The notes beneath the pieces were generated by a model, which was not told the origin of the DNA, made no database searches, and saw nothing but the letters and a program-made list of their open reading frames with translations. A DNA stretch of 5,386 nucleotides from Enterobacteria phage MED1. The stretch lies in sequence record KJ997912.1; one strand, 5' to 3'. Every line of letters begins with the position of its first letter. Position 1 is the stretch's first letter. The position numbers were made by a program, and so were the translations under genes. Shown piece after piece: positions 1 to 5,386 of this stretch.

Positions 1-51
1 GAGTTTTATCGCTTCCATGACGCAGAAGTTAACACTTTCGGATATTTCTGA
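1..51 (+). CDS. B: Internal scaffolding protein B, C-terminal 16 codons plus stop (continuation of 5075..5386 across the circular junction); stop TGA 49-51
   Basis: Translation of 1-51 in frame 1 gives [16 protein letters not shown], the conserved phiX174 B C-terminus; the stop overlaps the K start (TGATG at 49-53). Confidence 0.85.
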
Positions 52-136
52 TGAGTCGAAAAATTATCTTGATAAAGCAGGAATTACTACTGCTTGTTTA
101 CGAATTAAATCGAAGTGGACTGCTGGCGGAAAATGA
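1..136 (+). CDS. A: Replication initiator protein A (and A*), C-terminal segment; continuation across the circular junction of the ORF that runs off the window end at 5386 (position 1 is the third base of the junction codon CAG); stop TGA at 134-136
   Basis: Frame continuous with the 3981..5386 ORF when the ends are joined; translation ...[46 protein letters not shown] matches the phiX174 A C-terminus as I recall it; the stop overlaps the gene C start (ATGA at 133-136). Confidence 0.85.
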
Positions 137-221
137 GAAAATTCGACCTATCCTTGCGCAGCTCGAGAAGCTCTTACTTTGCGACCTTTCGCCATCAACT
201 AACGATTCTGTCAAAAACTGA
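51..221 (+). CDS. K: Protein K (56 aa, small nonessential membrane protein), overlapping the end of A and the start of C
   Basis: ATG 51-53 to TGA 219-221; translation [56 protein letters not shown] matches phiX174 K as recalled. Absent from the ORF track, presumably because it is below the length cutoff. Confidence 0.85.
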
Positions 222-393
222 TGCGTTGGATGAGGAGAAGTGGCTCAATATGCTTGGCACGTTCGTTAAGGACTGGTTTAGATATGAGTCACATTTTGTT
301 CACGGTAGAGATTCTCTTGTTGACATTTTAAAAGAGCGCGGATTATTATCTGAATCCGATGTAGTTCAACCATTAATAGGTAAAAAATCATGA
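133..393 (+). CDS. C: Protein C (86 aa; DNA maturation, switch from RF replication to ssDNA synthesis/packaging)
   Basis: ATG 133-135 (ATGA overlap with the A stop) to TGA 391-393 (ATGA overlap with the D start). The ORF track starts at 115, but that codon is GTG; the canonical start is the ATG at 133 ([11 protein letters not shown]...). Confidence 0.9.
320..358 (+). promoter_or_regulatory. Promoter pD (sigma70-type) inside gene C, driving the D-E-J-F-G-H late transcript
   Basis: -35 TTGACA at 320-325, 18-bp spacer, -10 TATTAT at 344-349; expected transcription start about 356-358, consistent with the known pD position in phiX174. Confidence 0.6.
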
Positions 394-848
394 GTCAAGT
401 TACTGAACAATCTGTACGTTTCCAAACCGCGCTGGCTTCTATCAAGCTGATTCAGGCTTCTGCTGTTCTGGATTTAACCGAAGATGATTTCGATTTTCTG
501 ACGAGTAATAAAGTTTGGATTGCTACTGACCGTTCTCGCGCTCGTCGCTGTGTAGAGGCTTGCGTCTATGGTACATTGGACTTTGTGGGATACCCTCGCT
601 TTCCTGCTCCTGTTGAGTTTATTGCTGCCGTCATTGCTTATTATGTTCATCCCGTCAACATTCAAACGGCCTGTCTCATCATGGAAGGCGCTGAGTTTAC
701 GGAAAACATTATTAATGGCGTCGAGCGTCCGGTTAAGGCCGCTGAGCTGTTCGCGTTTACCCTGCGTGTACGCGCAGGAAACACTGACGTTCTTACTGAC
801 GCAGAAGAGAACGTTCGCCAAAAATTACGCGCAGAAGGAGTGATGTAA
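390..848 (+). CDS. D: External scaffolding protein D (152 aa)
   Basis: ORF 390..848; translation [22 protein letters not shown]... is, as far as I can recall, identical to phiX174 D; start overlaps the C stop (ATGA), stop overlaps the J start (TAATG). Confidence 0.95.
   Translation: MSQVTEQSVRFQTALASIKLIQASAVLDLTEDDFDFLTSNKVWIATDRSRARRCVEACVYGTLDFVGYPRFPAPVEFIAAVIAYYVHPVNIQTACLIMEGAEFTENIINGVERPVKAAELFAFTLRVRAGNTDVLTDAEENVRQKLRAEGVM
568..843 (+). CDS. E: Lysis protein E (91 aa; MraY inhibitor), fully embedded in gene D in the +1 frame
   Basis: ATG 568 with AGAGG at 554-558 upstream; translation MVHWTLWDTLAFLLLLSLLLPSLLIMFIPSTFKRP... matches the phiX174 E N-terminal transmembrane domain including the LLLPSLL proline; the C-terminal half carries several substitutions versus the reference as recalled. 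Confidence 0.9.
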   Translation: MVHWTLWDTLAFLLLLSLLLPSLLIMFIPSTFKRPVSSWKALSLRKTLLMASSVRLRPLSCSRLPCVYAQETLTFLLTQKRTFAKNYAQKE

Positions 849-964
849 TGTCTAAAGGTAAAAAACGTTCTGGCGCTCGCCCCGGTCGTCCGCAGCCGTT
901 GCGAGGTACTAAAGGCAAGCGTAAAGGTGCTCGCCTCTGGTATGTAGGTGGTCAACAATTTTAA
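848..964 (+). CDS. J: DNA-binding / packaging protein J (38 aa, highly basic)
   Basis: ATG 848-850 to TAA 962-964; AGGAG at 836-840; translation MSKGKKRSGARPGRPQPLRGTKGKRKGARLWYVGGQQF matches phiX174 J. Confidence 0.9.
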   Translation: MSKGKKRSGARPGRPQPLRGTKGKRKGARLWYVGGQQF

Positions 965-969
965 TTATA

Positions 970-983
970 GGGGCTTCGGCCCC
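970..983 (+). terminator. J-F intergenic stem-loop GGGGC-UUCG-GCCCC (leaky terminator TJ / mRNA stabilising hairpin)
   Basis: Perfect 5-bp GC stem 970-974/979-983 closing a UUCG tetraloop 975-978; no following U-tract, consistent with an inefficient terminator; the gene F ribosome-binding site GAGG lies just downstream at 990-993. Confidence 0.55.
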
Positions 984-1000
984 TTACTTGAGGATAAATT

Positions 1001-2284
1001 ATGTCTAATGTTCAAACTGGCGCACAACGTATGCCGCATGACCTTTCCCATCTTGGCTTCCTTGCTGGTCAGATTGGTCGTCTTATTACCATTTCAACTA
1101 CTCCGGTTATCGCTGGCGACTCCTTCGAAATGGACGTCGTGGGCGCTCTTCGTCTTTCTCCATTGCGTCGTGGCCTTGCTATTGACTCTACTGTAGACAT
1201 TTTTACTTTTTATGTCCCTCATCGTCATGTTTATGGTGAGCAGTGGATTAAGTTTATGAAGGATGGCGTTAAAGCCGCTCCGCTCCCGACCGTTAACACT
1301 ACTGGTAATATTGACCATGCCGCTTTTCTTGGCACGATTAACCCTGATACCAATAAAATTCCTAAGCATTTGTTTCAGGGTTATCTGAATATCTATAACA
1401 ACTATTTTAAAGCGCCGTGGATGCCTGACCGTACCGAGGCTAACCCCAATCAGCTTAATGAAGATGATGCTCGCTATGGTTTCCGTTGCTGCCATCTTAA
1501 AAACATTTGGACTGCTCCGCTTCCTCCTGAGAGTGAGCTTTCTCGCCAAATGACGACTTCTACCACGTCCATTGACATTATGGGTCTGCAAGCTGCTTAT
1601 GCTAATTTGCATACTGACCAAGAACGTGATTACTTCATGCAGCGTTATCGTGATGTTATTTCTTCATTTGGAGGCAAAACTTCTTATGACGCTGACAACC
1701 GTCCTTTACTTGTCATGCGCTCTAATTTCTGGGCATCTGGCTATGATGTTGATGGAACTGACCAAACGTCGTTAGGCCAGTTTTCTGGTCGTGTTCAACA
1801 GACCTATAAGCATTCTGTGCCGCGTTTCTTTGTTCCTGAGCACGGCACTATGTTTACTCTCGCGCTGGTTCGTTTCCCGCCTACGGCGACTAAAGAGATT
1901 CAGTACTTGAATGCTAAAGGTGCTTTGACTTATACCGATATTGCTGGCGACCCTGCTTTGTATGGTAACTTGCCGCCGCGTGAAATTTCTATGAAGGATG
2001 TTTTTCGTTCTGGTGATTCTTCTAAGAAGTTTAAGATTGCCGAGGGTCAATGGTATCGTTATGCGCCTTCTTATGTTTCACCTGCATATCACCTGCTTGA
2101 AGGCTTCCCATTTATTCAGGAACCGCCTTCCGGTGATTTGCAAGAACGCGTACTTATTCGCCATCATGACTATGACCAGTGTTTCCAGTCCGTTCAGTTG
2201 TTGCAGTGGAATAGTCAGGTTAAATTTAATGTGACCGTTTATCGCAATCTGCCGACCACTCGCGATTCAATCATGACTTCGTGA
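1001..2284 (+). CDS. F: Major capsid protein F (427 aa)
   Basis: ORF 1001..2284 with GAGG 7 nt upstream; translation MSN.QTGA.RMPHDLSHLGFLAGQIGRLITISTTPVIAGDSFEMD... is near-identical to phiX174 F with scattered substitutions. Confidence 0.97.
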   Translation: MSNVQTGAQRMPHDLSHLGFLAGQIGRLITISTTPVIAGDSFEMDVVGALRLSPLRRGLAIDSTVDIFTFYVPHRHVYGEQWIKFMKDGVKAAPLPTVNTTGNIDHAAFLGTINPDTNKIPKHLFQGYLNIYNNYFKAPWMPDRTEANPNQLNEDDARYGFRCCHLKNIWTAPLPPESELSRQMTTSTTSIDIMGLQAAYANLHTDQERDYFMQRYRDVISSFGGKTSYDADNRPLLVMRSNFWASGYDVDGTDQTSLGQFSGRVQQTYKHSVPRFFVPEHGTMFTLALVRFPPTATKEIQYLNAKGALTYTDIAGDPALYGNLPPREISMKDVFRSGDSSKKFKIAEGQWYRYAPSYVSPAYHLLEGFPFIQEPPSGDLQERVLIRHHDYDQCFQSVQLLQWNSQVKFNVTVYRNLPTTRDSIMTS

Positions 2285-2315
2285 TAAAAGATTAAGTGTG
2301 AGGTTATAACGCCGA

Positions 2316-2343
2316 AGCGGTAAAAATTTTAATTTTTGCCGCT
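2316..2343 (+). terminator. F-G intergenic long hairpin (terminator TF; core of the PriA / n-prime primosome assembly site used for complementary-strand synthesis)
   Basis: AGCGGTAAAAATT (2316-2328) pairs with AATTTTTGCCGCT (2331-2343), with one G-U wobble; smaller GC hairpins flank it (CCG-AAG-CGG at 2312-2320, GCG-AAG-CGC at about 2359-2367). The F-G intergenic region of phiX174 is the known n-prime recognition site. Confidence 0.5.
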
Positions 2344-2394
2344 GAGGGGTTGACCAAGCGAAGCGCGGTAGGTTTTCTGCTTAGGAGTTTAATC

Positions 2395-2922
2395 ATGTTT
2401 CAGACTTTTATTTCTCGCCATAATTCAAACTTTTTTTCTGATAAGCTGGATCTCCGTTCTGTTACTCCAGCTTCTTCAGCACCTGTTTTACAGACACCTA
2501 AAGCTACATCGTCAACGTTATATTTTAATGAGTTGATGGTTAACGCTGGTAATGGTGGTTTTCTTCATTGCATTCAGATGGACACATCTGTCAACGCCGC
2601 TAATCAGGTTGTTTCTGTTGGTGCTGATATTGCTTTTGATGTCGACCCTAAATTTTTTGCCTGTTTGGTTCGCTTTGAGTCTTCTTCGGTTCCGACTACC
2701 CTCCCGACTGCTTATGATGTTTATCCTTTGGATGGTCGCCATGATGGTGGTTATTATACTGTTAAGGATTGCGTGACTATTGACGTTCTTCCCCGTACGC
2801 CGGGCAATAATGTTTATGTTGGTTTCATGGTTTGGTCTAACTTTACCGGTACTAAATGCCGCGGATTGGTTTCGCTGAATCAGGTTATTAAAGAGATTAT
2901 TTGTCTCCAGCCACTTAAGTGA
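2395..2922 (+). CDS. G: Major spike protein G (175 aa)
   Basis: ATG 2395 with AGGAG at 2383-2387; the ORF track's 2350 start is an in-frame upstream extension without an RBS; translation [18 protein letters not shown]... matches phiX174 G with a few substitutions. Confidence 0.95.
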
Positions 2923-2930
2923 GGTGATTT

Positions 2931-3917
2931 ATGTTTGGTGCTATTGCTGGCGGTATTGCTTCCGCTCTTGCTGGCGGCGCCATGTCTAAATTGTTTGGAG
3001 GCGGTCAAAAAGCCGCCTCCGGTGGCATTCAAGGTGATGTGCTTGCTACCGATAACAATACTGTAGGCATGGGTGACGCTGGTATTAAATCTGCCATTCA
3101 AGGCTCTAATGTTCCTAACCCTGATGAGGCCGCCCCTAATTTTGTTTCTGGTGCTATGGCTAAAGCTGGTAAAGGGCTTCTTGAAGGTACGTTGCAGGCT
3201 GGCACTTCTGCCGTTTCTGATAAGTTTCTTGATTTGGTTGGACTTGGTGGCAAGTCTGCCGCTGATAAAGGAAAGGATACTCGTGATTATCTTGCTGCTG
3301 CATTTCCTGAGCTTAACGCTTGGGAGCGTGCTGGTGCTGGTGCTTCCTCTGCTGGTATGGTTGACGCCGGATTTGAGAATCAAAAAGAGCTTACTAAAAT
3401 GCAACTGGACAATCAGAAAGAGATTGCCGAGATGCAAAATGAAACTCAAAAGGAGATTGCTGGCATTCAGTCGGCGACTTCCCGTCAGAATACGAAAGAC
3501 CAAGTATATGCACAAAATGAGATGCTTGCTTATCAACAAAAGGAGTCTACTGCTCGCGTTGCGTCTATTATGGAAAACACCAATCTTTCCAAGCAACAGC
3601 AGGTTTCTGAGATTATGCGCCAGATGCTTATACAGGCTCAAACGGCTGGCCAGTATTTTACTAACGACCAAATCAAAGAGATGACTCGCAAGGTTAGCGC
3701 TGAAGTTGACTTGGTTCATCAACAGACGCAGAATCAGCGGTATGGTTCTTCTCATATTGGTGCTACTGCTAAGGATATTTCTAATGTCGTCACTGATGCT
3801 GCTTCTGGTGTGGTTGATATTTTTCATGGTATTGATAAAGCTGTTGCCGACACTTGGAACAATTTCTGGAAAGACGGTAAAGCTGATGGCATTGGCTCTA
3901 ATTTGTCTAGGAAGTAA
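2931..3917 (+). CDS. H: Minor spike / DNA pilot protein H (328 aa)
   Basis: ORF 2931..3917; RBS GAGGTGA at 2921-2927 overlaps the G stop; Gly-rich N-terminus ([25 protein letters not shown]) and Q/E/K-rich central coiled-coil region typical of phiX174 H. Confidence 0.95.
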
Positions 3918-3926
3918 CCGTCAGGA

Positions 3927-3955
3927 TTGACACCTTTCTAATTGTGTGATTTCAT
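3927..3955 (+). promoter_or_regulatory. Candidate promoter pA in the H-A intergenic region
   Basis: -35 TTGACA at 3927-3932; TG at 3947-3948 followed by a weak -10 TTTCAT at 3950-3955 (extended -10 arrangement, 17-bp spacer). Position agrees with the known pA of phiX174; exact start site not determinable from sequence. Confidence 0.45.
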
Positions 3956-3980
3956 GCCTCCAAACTTTGGAGGCTTTTTT
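3956..3980 (+). terminator. Rho-independent terminator TH: GCCTCCAAA/TTTGGAGGC hairpin followed by a T6 run, immediately before the A start codon
   Basis: Inverted repeat 3956-3964 / 3966-3974, then TTTTTT at 3975-3980; the 3-prime arm contains GGAGG (3969-3973), which also serves as the Shine-Dalgarno sequence of gene A (ATG 3981). Confidence 0.6.
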
Positions 3981-5386
3981 ATGGTTCGTTCGTATTACCC
4001 TTCTGAATGTCACGCTGATTATTTTGACTTTGAGCGTATCGAGGCTCTTAAACCTGCTATCGAGGCCTGTGGCATTTCTACTCTTTCCCAATCTCCGATG
4101 CTTGCCTTCCATAAGCAGATGGATAACCGCATCAAGCTCCTTGAAGAGATTTTGTCATTTCGTATGCAGGGCGTTGAGTTCGATAATGGTGATATGTATG
4201 TCGACGGTCATAAGGCTGCTTCTGATGTTCGTGATGAGTTTGTGTCTGTTACTGAAAAGTTAATGGATGAATTGGCACAATGTTACAACGTGCTCCCCCA
4301 ACTTGATATTAATAACACTATAGACCACCGCCCCGAAGGGGACGAAAAATGGTTTTTAGAGAACGAGAAGACGGTTACGCAGTTTTGCCGTAAGCTGGCT
4401 GCTGAACGCCCTCTTAAGGATATTCGAGATGAGTATAATTACCCCAAAAAGAAAGGTATTAAGGATGAGTGTTCAAGATTGTTGGAGGCCTCCACTATGA
4501 AATCGCGTAGAGGCTTTACTATTCAACGTTTGATGAATGCAATGCGTCAGGCTCACGCTGATGGCTGGTTTATCGTTTTTGACACTCTTACGCTGGCTGA
4601 TGACCGCTTAGAGGCGTTTTATGATAATCCCAATGCTTTGCGTGACTATTTTCGTGATATTGGTCGTATGGTTCTTGCTGCCGAGGGTCGTAAAGCTAAT
4701 GACTCACACGCCGACTGCTATCAGTATTTTTGTGTGCCTGAGTATGGTTCAGCTAATGGCCGTCTTCATTTCCATGCGGTGCATTTTATGCGGACACTTC
4801 CTACAGGTAGCGTTGACCCTAATTTTGGTCGTCGGGTACGCAATCGCCGCCAGTTAAATAGCTTGCAAAACACGTGGCCTTATGGTTACAGTATGCCTAT
4901 CGCAGTTCGCTACACGCAGGACGCTTTTTCACGTTCTGGATGGTTGTGGCCTGTTGATGCTAAAGGTGAGCCGCTTAAAGCTACCAGTTACATGGCTGTT
5001 GGCTTCTATGTGGCTAAATACGTTAACAAAAAGTCAGATATGGACCTTGCCGCTAAAGGTCTAGGAGCTAAAGAATGGAACAACTCACTAAAAACCAAGC
5101 TGTCGCTACTTCCCAAGAAATTATTCAGAATCCGAATGAGCCGCAACTTCGGGATGAAAATGCTCACAATGACCAACCTGTCAATGGAATGCTTAATCCA
5201 GCTTACCAAGCTGGGTTACGACGCGACGCCGTTCAACCAGATATTGAAGCAGAACGCAAAAAGAGAGATGAGATTGAGGCTGGCAAAAGTTACTGTAGCC
5301 GACGTTTTGGCGGCGCAACCTGTGACGACAAATCTGCTCAAATTTATGCGCGCTTCGATAAAAATGATTGGCGTGTCCAACCTGCA
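3981..5386 (+). CDS. A: Replication initiator protein A (HUH rolling-circle endonuclease; 513 aa in total), N-terminal about 468 codons; the ORF runs off the window end and finishes at 1..136
   Basis: ATG 3981 preceded by GGAGG; no in-frame stop to position 5386; HUH motif HFHAVH encoded at 4767-4784; catalytic tyrosine pair in VGFYVAKYVNKK (Tyr codons 5007-5009 and 5019-5021, residues 343 and 347). Confidence 0.95.
   Translation, partial: MVRSYYPSECHADYFDFERIEALKPAIEACGISTLSQSPMLAFHKQMDNRIKLLEEILSFRMQGVEFDNGDMYVDGHKAASDVRDEFVSVTEKLMDELAQCYNVLPQLDINNTIDHRPEGDEKWFLENEKTVTQFCRKLAAERPLKDIRDEYNYPKKKGIKDECSRLLEASTMKSRRGFTIQRLMNAMRQAHADGWFIVFDTLTLADDRLEAFYDNPNALRDYFRDIGRMVLAAEGRKANDSHADCYQYFCVPEYGSANGRLHFHAVHFMRTLPTGSVDPNFGRRVRNRRQLNSLQNTWPYGYSMPIAVRYTQDAFSRSGWLWPVDAKGEPLKATSYMAVGFYVAKYVNKKSDMDLAAKGLGAKEWNNSLKTKLSLLPKKLFRIRMSRNFGMKMLTMTNLSMECLIQLTKLGYDATPFNQILKQNAKREMRLRLAKVTVADVLAAQPVTTNLLKFMRASIKMIGVSNL
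4299..4328 (+). other. Viral-strand origin of replication (30-nt A-protein recognition sequence); nick site between G4305 and A4306
   Basis: CAACTTGATATTAATAACACTATAGACCAC at 4299-4328 is the canonical phiX174 ori, located inside gene A at the same coordinates as in the reference. Confidence 0.85.
4497..5386 (+). CDS. A*: A* protein (341 aa in total): internal in-frame translation initiation within gene A; continues to 1..136
   Basis: In-frame ATG at 4497 preceded by GGAGG at 4484-4488 (8-nt spacing); corresponds to the known A* start of phiX174 (MKSRRGF...). Confidence 0.75.
   Translation, partial: MKSRRGFTIQRLMNAMRQAHADGWFIVFDTLTLADDRLEAFYDNPNALRDYFRDIGRMVLAAEGRKANDSHADCYQYFCVPEYGSANGRLHFHAVHFMRTLPTGSVDPNFGRRVRNRRQLNSLQNTWPYGYSMPIAVRYTQDAFSRSGWLWPVDAKGEPLKATSYMAVGFYVAKYVNKKSDMDLAAKGLGAKEWNNSLKTKLSLLPKKLFRIRMSRNFGMKMLTMTNLSMECLIQLTKLGYDATPFNQILKQNAKREMRLRLAKVTVADVLAAQPVTTNLLKFMRASIKMIGVSNL
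4850..4900 (+). promoter_or_regulatory. Approximate location of promoter pB (inside gene A, upstream of B)
   Basis: Weak sigma70-like elements only (TTGCAA at 4863-4868, then TTACAG/TACAGT around 4886-4892); placed mainly from knowledge that pB lies about 190 nt upstream of B in phiX174. Exact hexamers uncertain. Confidence 0.3.
5075..5386 (+). CDS. B: Internal scaffolding protein B (120 aa in total), embedded in gene A in a different frame; continues at 1..51
   Basis: ATG 5075 with AGGAG at 5063-5067; translation MEQLTKNQAVATSQE... with the conserved C-terminus after the wrap; the N-terminal third carries several substitutions versus the reference as recalled. Confidence 0.9.
   Translation, partial: MEQLTKNQAVATSQEIIQNPNEPQLRDENAHNDQPVNGMLNPAYQAGLRRDAVQPDIEAERKKRDEIEAGKSYCSRRFGGATCDDKSAQIYARFDKNDWRVQPA

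Follow-up and report, generated by a model that had tools for sequence, protein, structure and literature searches.

The window, the whole stretch of 5386 nt, is the complete circular single-stranded DNA genome (viral plus strand) of a natural strain of Sinsheimervirus phiX174 (Bullavirinae, Microviridae), almost certainly the GenBank isolate Enterobacteria phage MED1, numbered from the PstI origin of the Sanger sequence. Genes A, A*, B, K, C, D, E, J, F, G and H lie in that order on one strand, all 11 intact, with B inside A, K across the A/C boundary and E inside D. Alignment with the phiX174 Sanger strain (J02482) revealed 215 substitutions and 0 indels, leaving 5171 of 5386 positions equal, and the resulting identity of 96.0% is above the 95% over full length that is the usual threshold for a phage species. 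Length, the 11 genes and their coordinates, the origin core, the intergenic hairpins and the PstI numbering origin are common to the two genomes. We infer the circular single-stranded topology, the infectivity and the host, and homology of the F, G, H, J, B and D proteins suggests that the single-stranded DNA would be enclosed in a T=1 capsid.

Genome form and numbering origin

The first letter of the window is G and the last letters are CTGCA. The joined ends, reading AACCTGCA followed directly by GAGTTTTA, form the sole CTGCAG in the circle, with CTGCA at 5382-5386 and the G at position 1, the numbering origin, completing the site. A random cut would fall at the single PstI site with odds of 1 in 5386, and the start at this position is explained by the Sanger numbering convention rather than by a physical end of the molecule. 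The initial annotation, which had recognized the length, the terminal letters and the PstI site formed on joining, was borne out; its description of the genome as linearized at PstI holds for the position of the ends, although this is a matter of database numbering and not a molecular property. It had also proposed that A/A* and B are split by the ends and become whole on circularization. Joining and translation gave stop-free reading frames of 513 aa for 3981 to 136 and 120 aa for 5075 to 51. Records of S13 and PJNS001, which have other start points, are uninterrupted across the junction of the window, and the circle closes at approximately 5.4 kb with the A, A* and B reading frames continuous over the junction.

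The 11 genes were located at the canonical phiX174 coordinates, as originally claimed, in agreement with the annotation of J02482 and of 16 wild isolates. The 22 gap-free phiX174-like genomes of 5386 nt aligned base for base with zero indels, and whole-genome comparison against phiX174, S13 and a further 20 phiX-like phages revealed no insertion, deletion or rearrangement, results which uphold the earlier statement that no inserted cargo or novel system is present. Two-frame reading applies to 809 nt, three-frame reading to 5 nt and 217 nt are non-coding. The claim that every nucleotide is accounted for rests on the colinearity of these 217 bases with the known intergenic regions of phiX174, from which they barely differ; the functions ascribed to them in the phiX174 literature would apply here by analogy.

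Genes, products and intergenic regions

All ten distinct products matched the expected Pfam families far above the cut-offs, and a purine tract resembling a ribosome binding site (RBS) precedes every start codon. Gene A (3981-5386 then 1-136, plus strand, as for all features with a strand below) specifies an HUH endonuclease of 513 aa, the replication initiator (Phage_GPA, 4.8e-62). The joined reading frame starts with ATG, stops with TGA and contains 0 internal stops. The product has the features of a rolling-circle initiator, an HUH motif (HFHAVH at aa 263) and two catalytic tyrosines (Y343/Y347; YVAKY at aa 343-347, within YVAKYVNK at aa 343). Gene A* (4497 to 136; 341 aa) is in the same frame as A, and in the 3' end common to both (1-136) bases 1-51 are read a second time, in a different frame, as the 3' end of B. 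Gene B (5075-5386 then 1-51), inside A in another frame, encodes the 120-aa internal scaffolding protein (Phage_B, 2.8e-49). The remaining genes are K (51-221; 56 aa; Protein_K, 3.3e-41), C (133-393; 86-aa DNA maturation protein; Phage_C, 1e-50), D (390-848; 152-aa external scaffolding protein), E (568-843; 91-aa lysis protein in the +1 frame relative to D; Microvir_lysis, 5.6e-22), J (848-964; 38-aa DNA-binding core protein; Microvir_J), F (1001-2284; 427-aa major capsid protein; Phage_F, 5.1e-169), G (2395-2922; 175-aa major spike protein) and H (2931-3917; 328-aa minor spike and DNA pilot protein; Microvir_H, 2.5e-214). The two hallmarks of Bullavirinae that are absent in gokushoviruses were both present, D (PF02925 gpD, 2.8e-98) and G (PF02306 Phage_G, 2.1e-119).

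The 30-bp core of the origin of viral-strand synthesis, CAACTTGATATTAATAACACTATAGACCAC, is located at 4299-4328 and is identical to that of J02482, the annotation of which places rep_origin at 4306; by analogy with phiX174 the gpA nick would presumably fall just before A4306 (4305/4306). Within gene C, the sequence at 320-349 comprises TTGACA, an 18-nt spacer and TATTAT, the top sigma-70 match in the window (11/12) in the promoter scan, at a position that corresponds to pD of phiX174. Compared with most relatives, its -10 hexamer has the change C346T; the hexamer reads TACTAT in J02482. The J-F intergenic region (965-1000) contains the F RBS and the hairpin GGGGC-TTCG-GCCCC (970-983), unchanged in 17 of the 17 genomes displayed, which from knowledge of phiX174 presumably acts as a terminator or mRNA stabilizer. 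The F-G intergenic region (2285-2394) is colinear in all relatives with 1 substitution relative to J02482 (G2294A); the phiX174 counterpart has a terminator and the hairpins at which the PriA (n') primosome assembles, functions that would carry over to MED1. Besides the A RBS, the H-A intergenic region (3918-3980) contains the pA -35 hexamer TTGACA at 3927-3932 and, at 3956-3974, a terminator-like hairpin with a T run behind it, GCCTCCAAACTTTGGAGGC, which the terminator scan detected. This region differs from J02482 by seven substitutions and is identical in S13, ID34, NC11, NC5, NC56 and ID45. The promoter and terminator scans of the window returned match counts no higher than those in shuffled sequence. 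Two of the matches, pD and the H-A hairpin, coincide with signals known from phiX174, and no others do.

By analogy with phiX174 and from knowledge of the family, MED1 should function exactly as that phage does. The G and H spikes would recognize lipopolysaccharide (LPS), with H piloting the DNA into the cell, where PriA-dependent priming by the host within the F-G intergenic region would turn the single-stranded DNA into the replicative form. The HUH and double-tyrosine site of gpA would nick the 30-bp origin at 4305/4306 and drive rolling-circle replication. Procapsids of F and G would be scaffolded by B and D, C would turn replication to packaging with J condensing the DNA, and E is expected to bring about lysis by blocking MraY.

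Divergence from the Sanger strain and relation to wild isolates

The substitutions relative to J02482 consist of 170 transitions and 45 transversions. Proteins K, D and J match those of phiX174 exactly, K without any substitution, while amino-acid changes were found in A (5), B (9), C (1), E (9), F (12), G (8) and H (4) for a total of 48. Gene D has 27 synonymous and 0 non-synonymous substitutions, whereas the E protein embedded in it has nine of the changes, and where B changes the substitutions in A are mostly synonymous. Conservation extends to the replication origin, to both catalytic motifs of gpA (HUH and double tyrosine), to the intergenic hairpins and to Pro21 of E. Judged from the aligned sequences, the pattern of substitution looks like that of natural purifying selection. 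The phiX174-type architecture given in the initial annotation is retained, with a refinement for the strain, which is a wild one diverged by approximately 4% and not the laboratory reference. The divergence is ordinary standing variation within the species, which homologous recombination has partly reshuffled.

Exact look-up at the protein level found A, B, C, E, F, G and H residue-for-residue identical to the products of MED1 (NCBI taxid 1508658; AII27891-AII27901). The matches were gpA, AII27891.1; gpB, AII27893.1, which is also the gpB of ID34; gpC, AII27895.1, the same protein as in WA4 and NC11; gpE, AII27897.1; gpF, AII27899.1; gpG, AII27900.1; and gpH, AII27901.1. For A, E, F, G and H, MED1 was the sole member among the UniRef100 entries listed. 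The identity with MED1 is one of proteins, and at the DNA level the window might be a synonymous variant. In the NCBI taxonomy, MED1 is listed within Escherichia phage phiX174 (Sinsheimervirus phiX174). A search of the literature collection at hand found no paper naming MED1, and look-up of the exact G product in the assembly index returned no entry.

In nucleotide searches, 161 phage records, each of them phiX174-like, had 95-99% identity to the window over 80% or more of its length. The best megablast match in the phage collection was 96.6%, with other members at 96.1-96.6%, and four assembly contigs encode an identical gpA in DNA that is only 96.6-96.9% identical. The phage collection, the assembly contigs and the viral, metagenome and genome contigs yielded no DNA above 96.9% identity, and exact 28- to 29-mers carrying alleles missing from the relatives then compared were absent in the viral, metagenome and genome contigs. 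PJNS001, ID34, NC1, NC51, NC11, WA4, S13 and the contigs SRR27027700 and SRR413567 belong to the same species-level cluster, are colinear with the window and have most of its variant alleles in common. Each of these differs from the window by 165-270 substitutions. The distance to every panel member was 166-270 substitutions; the other panel genomes are 0-198 substitutions from their own nearest relative.

Similarity to the relatives is mosaic (max-chi-square, permutation p<0.001), a result consistent with within-species recombination. From 4161 through the junction to 1192 the window has 20 mismatches in approximately 2.4 kb relative to SRR413567 (approximately 99.2% identity), and F-G-H is only approximately 97% identical to the best relative. 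The suggested breakpoints lie near 1190-1430 and 4160. The F, G and H proteins together contain 24 amino-acid changes relative to the Sanger strain, among them V19D, T21R, D45N, S46E and T48M in G. It is a tentative suggestion, on balance rather unlikely, that the F-G-H module (approximately 1200-4160) derives by recombination from an unsampled phiX174 lineage and that its changes might shift LPS or host range relative to laboratory phiX174. Such an origin, if true, would still constitute strain-level variation in a very well known species.

Alternative explanations and significance

Since phiX spike-in is widespread in public assemblies, and the window agrees with the reference in length, gene coordinates and numbering origin, it might be the standard laboratory or Illumina-control phiX174, either as contamination or as the reference itself. 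This explanation is refuted by the alignment, the 215 substitutions relative to J02482 being accompanied by 210 relative to a laboratory-line isolate and by the 48 amino-acid changes over A, B, C, E, F, G and H, and its probability is vanishingly small. Sequencing error is incapable of producing 4% divergence with the D protein unchanged and A nearly unchanged. A designed, chimeric or computer-generated phiX174-like genome, for example from shuffling of natural alleles or from a genome language model, would accommodate the exact retention of the reference length and start, the roughly equal distances (184-227 substitutions) to the first nine relatives compared, and the finding that most variant alleles are known in other isolates with only approximately 21 private to the window against the 24-genome panel. 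Nevertheless, it is very improbable. All strain-specific proteins equal those in the record of a named phage isolate, MED1, and comparable isolation is found in ID1, ID22, WA4 and PJNS001, the nearest neighbors of which are 156-198 substitutions away and which have 17-42 singletons. Furthermore, the similarity occurs in long blocks, as in the segment from 4161 to 1192, consistent with a few recombination events rather than site-by-site sampling, and the overlapping genes display the pattern of natural selection.

A further functional element in addition to the 11 genes, for example an unannotated RNA or a minus-strand reading frame antisense to H, was also considered, the longest non-canonical reading frame in the window being that of 315 aa at 2880-3827 on the minus strand. 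The antisense frame is broken in 24 of 24 relatives; uninterrupted stretches there reach at most 103-276 codons, compared to 346 in the window. The frame of the window stayed open in each shuffle of synonymous codons. The frame is open because H is without TTA, CTA and TCA codons, and the minus-strand reading frame opposite H is regarded as a non-conserved by-product of codon usage. With zero families detected at the gathering threshold in the Rfam search of the window, and with promoter- and terminator-like matches no commoner than in shuffled sequence, an extra element is very improbable.

The phage is an ordinary, already known one, and the genome holds nothing new. The value for discovery is small since the species is the most thoroughly studied phage and the strain is apparently in GenBank; the practical value lies in the negative result that the genome carries no cargo, rearrangement or hidden element. 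Nonetheless, the MED1 genome provides a clean worked example of overlapping genes constraining substitutions, with D compared to E and A compared to B, and adds a data point for recombination in wild phiX174-like phages.

Circular organization and gene content

The sequence is 5386 nt long, with G as its first base and CTGCA at its end, and joining the ends produces a junction reading AACCTGCA followed by GAGTTTTA that contains the sole CTGCAG (PstI) site of the circle (5382-5386+1). Since a random cut would meet this site with a chance of 1 in 5386, the results indicate that the start of the window is the Sanger numbering convention for phiX174 and no physical end of the molecule. S13 and PJNS001, wild phiX174-like relatives deposited with different start points, are continuous across the junction. 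Upon circularization, genes A (3981 to 136, 513 aa), A* (4497 to 136, 341 aa) and B (5075 to 51, 120 aa) each run across the junction from an ATG to a terminal stop with no internal stop. The other eight genes were already found at canonical coordinates in the ORF list of the uncircularized sequence: K (51-221), C (frame ending at 393), D (390-848), E (568-843), J (848-964), F (1001-2284), G (frame ending at 2922) and H (2931-3917). The coordinates are exactly those annotated in J02482, the Sanger strain of phiX174, and in wild isolates. Thus, the initial annotation was right as to the length, the PstI ends, the completion of A, A* and B on circularization, and the canonical placement of the 11 genes. 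Non-coding sequence amounts to 217 nt; two reading frames share 809 nt, and three share 5 nt. All ten distinct products matched the Pfam families expected of them, with scores well clear of the curated cut-offs (Phage_GPA, Phage_B, Protein_K, Phage_C, gpD, Microvir_lysis, Microvir_J, Phage_F, Phage_G and Microvir_H).

Two related records are annotated differently. In the laboratory phiX174 isolate AP100 (EF380009.1) gene C is annotated at 133-369 rather than up to 393, so that the C protein would be shortened. In the record of Shigella phage SGF3 (MN266305.1), none of capsid protein F, J, E, K and B has an annotated CDS, and two minus-strand "hypothetical proteins" (4028-4405 and 4460-4978) are listed downstream of gene D, in the region that J and F occupy in related records; this is probably an annotation artefact.

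Strain identity and relatives

A megablast search of 50,697 phage records returned 161 spanning at least 80% of the window with 95-99% identity, all of them phiX174 or phiX174-like and none above 96.6%. Position-by-position comparison with 22 genomes (J02482, a laboratory line, S13, PJNS001, 15 DQ0798xx wild isolates of the ID, NC and WA names, and three circular assembly contigs) required no gaps in any of the 22, indicating that the window contains no insertion, deletion or rearrangement, in agreement with the initial annotation. Searches of viral, metagenome and genome contigs with exact 28-29-mers, chosen for alleles absent from the relatives then retrieved, revealed no closer DNA. Four assembly contigs encode an identical gpA, their DNA being only 96.6-96.9% identical to the window. 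The record of Salmonella phage SP14 (PP501405.1) is 5513 nt long for a 5386-nt genome type; the 127 surplus nt resemble terminal redundancy from assembling a circle.

Against J02482 the window has 215 substitutions, of which 170 are transitions and 45 transversions, and 10 are intergenic. This divergence excludes reference or spike-in phiX174 as its source. An exact-sequence look-up in a collection of 15 billion proteins identified the A, B, C, E, F, G and H proteins as those of Enterobacteria phage MED1 (AII27891, AII27893, AII27895, AII27897, AII27899, AII27900 and AII27901, respectively, on a 5386-nt contig); for A, E, F, G and H, MED1 alone is named among the UniRef100 entries listed. K, D and J have the sequences found in most phiX174 strains. 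In the NCBI taxonomy MED1 is listed beneath Escherichia phage phiX174 (species Sinsheimervirus phiX174), and the literature search found no paper naming it. The reading as a whole phiX174-type genome is supported and can be refined: the window is a wild phiX174 strain that differs from the Sanger strain by about 4% and, judged by the proteins only, is the already known MED1.

PhiX174 sequences are also filed under other names. The 24,953-bp record of Mycolicibacterium phage J1 (MZ417522.1) has a complete phiX174-type genome at 169-5631, minus strand, most likely carried into the assembly from an Illumina spike-in, and database entries for the phiX proteins F, G and H likewise bear names such as Acinetobacter, Neisseria, Listeria, Chlamydia, Ixodes and Penicillium, among others.

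Substitution pattern and mosaic structure

Relative to J02482, overlapping frames are strongly asymmetric. All 27 substituted sites in D are synonymous, while E, lying inside D, has 9 amino-acid changes, every one through sites synonymous in D. Similarly, 10 of the 12 substituted sites in the A/B overlap (5075-51) are synonymous in A, and B has 9 amino-acid changes grouped in residues 16-43. No changes occur in K; F, G and H have 12, 8 and 4 amino-acid changes and, in synonymous codons, 42, 10 and 29 substituted sites, respectively. The pattern is that expected to result from purifying selection on overlapping genes.

Over the ~2.4 kb that run from 4161 across the junction to 1192, 20 positions separate the window from the SRR413567 assembly contig (~99.2% identical); this block takes in the last three-quarters of A, then B, K, C, D, E and J, and the beginning of F. 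In the other block, 1193-4160, identity to any relative is only ~97%; over F-G-H and the first part of A, even the best single relative differs at 74 of 2731 positions. Maximum chi-square tests with three parent pairs found none of 1000 permutations as extreme as observed (p<0.001), with breakpoints near 4090-4200 that are approximate, the test being simple and home-made. This blockwise similarity fits, and suggests, homologous recombination within the species.

A designed or generated genome is disfavoured by these long blocks of shared similarity, by strain-specific proteins equal to those of a named GenBank isolate, and by several undisputed wild isolates that are equally isolated in the panel. 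The nearest gap-free neighbour lies 166 substitutions away, a distance matched by other wild isolates at 156-198, and in the 24-genome panel the window has only 21 private alleles, fewer than ID1, ID22, WA4, S13 or the Sanger strain. A hidden extra element was considered in the minus-strand ORF at 2880-3827 (315 aa, 346 stop-free codons), which lies antisense to gene H over its entire length. This ORF is open in this strain alone and broken in all 24 relatives; since its openness comes only from the absence of TTA, CTA and TCA codons in the H of this strain, it was ruled out as a gene.

Functional signals and predicted life cycle

The 30-bp origin core (4299-4328) matches the reference exactly, and gpA retains HFHAVH at residue 263 and YVAKYVNK at residues 343-350 with both catalytic tyrosines. 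Pro21 of E is also retained. The J-F hairpin is invariant among the panel genomes displayed, the F-G intergenic region has one substitution, and the terminator-like H-A hairpin has an unchanged stem and two loop changes; the full-length H-A spacer is identical in S13, ID34, NC11, NC5, NC56 and ID45. An Rfam search of the window gave no match at the gathering threshold, and a generic promoter and terminator scan gave counts not above shuffled controls.

Every gene and sequence signal is present, intact and conserved, with functions predicted by analogy. Nothing in the sequence departs from the phiX174 life cycle, the steps of which are established for the family. The G/H spike would recognize LPS and H would pilot the DNA, followed by PriA-dependent synthesis of the complementary strand, nicking of the origin by gpA and rolling-circle replication. 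Procapsids would assemble on B and D scaffolds, packaging would depend on C and involve J, and E would cause lysis via inhibition of MraY.

The -10 hexamer of pD, a sigma-70-type promoter inside gene C, reads TATTAT (344-349), where almost every relative has TACTAT; of the 17 genomes displayed, the SRR413567 contig alone shares TATTAT. The change, C346T, is synonymous in C and brings the hexamer one step nearer the sigma-70 consensus, with the consequence that late-gene transcription might rise.
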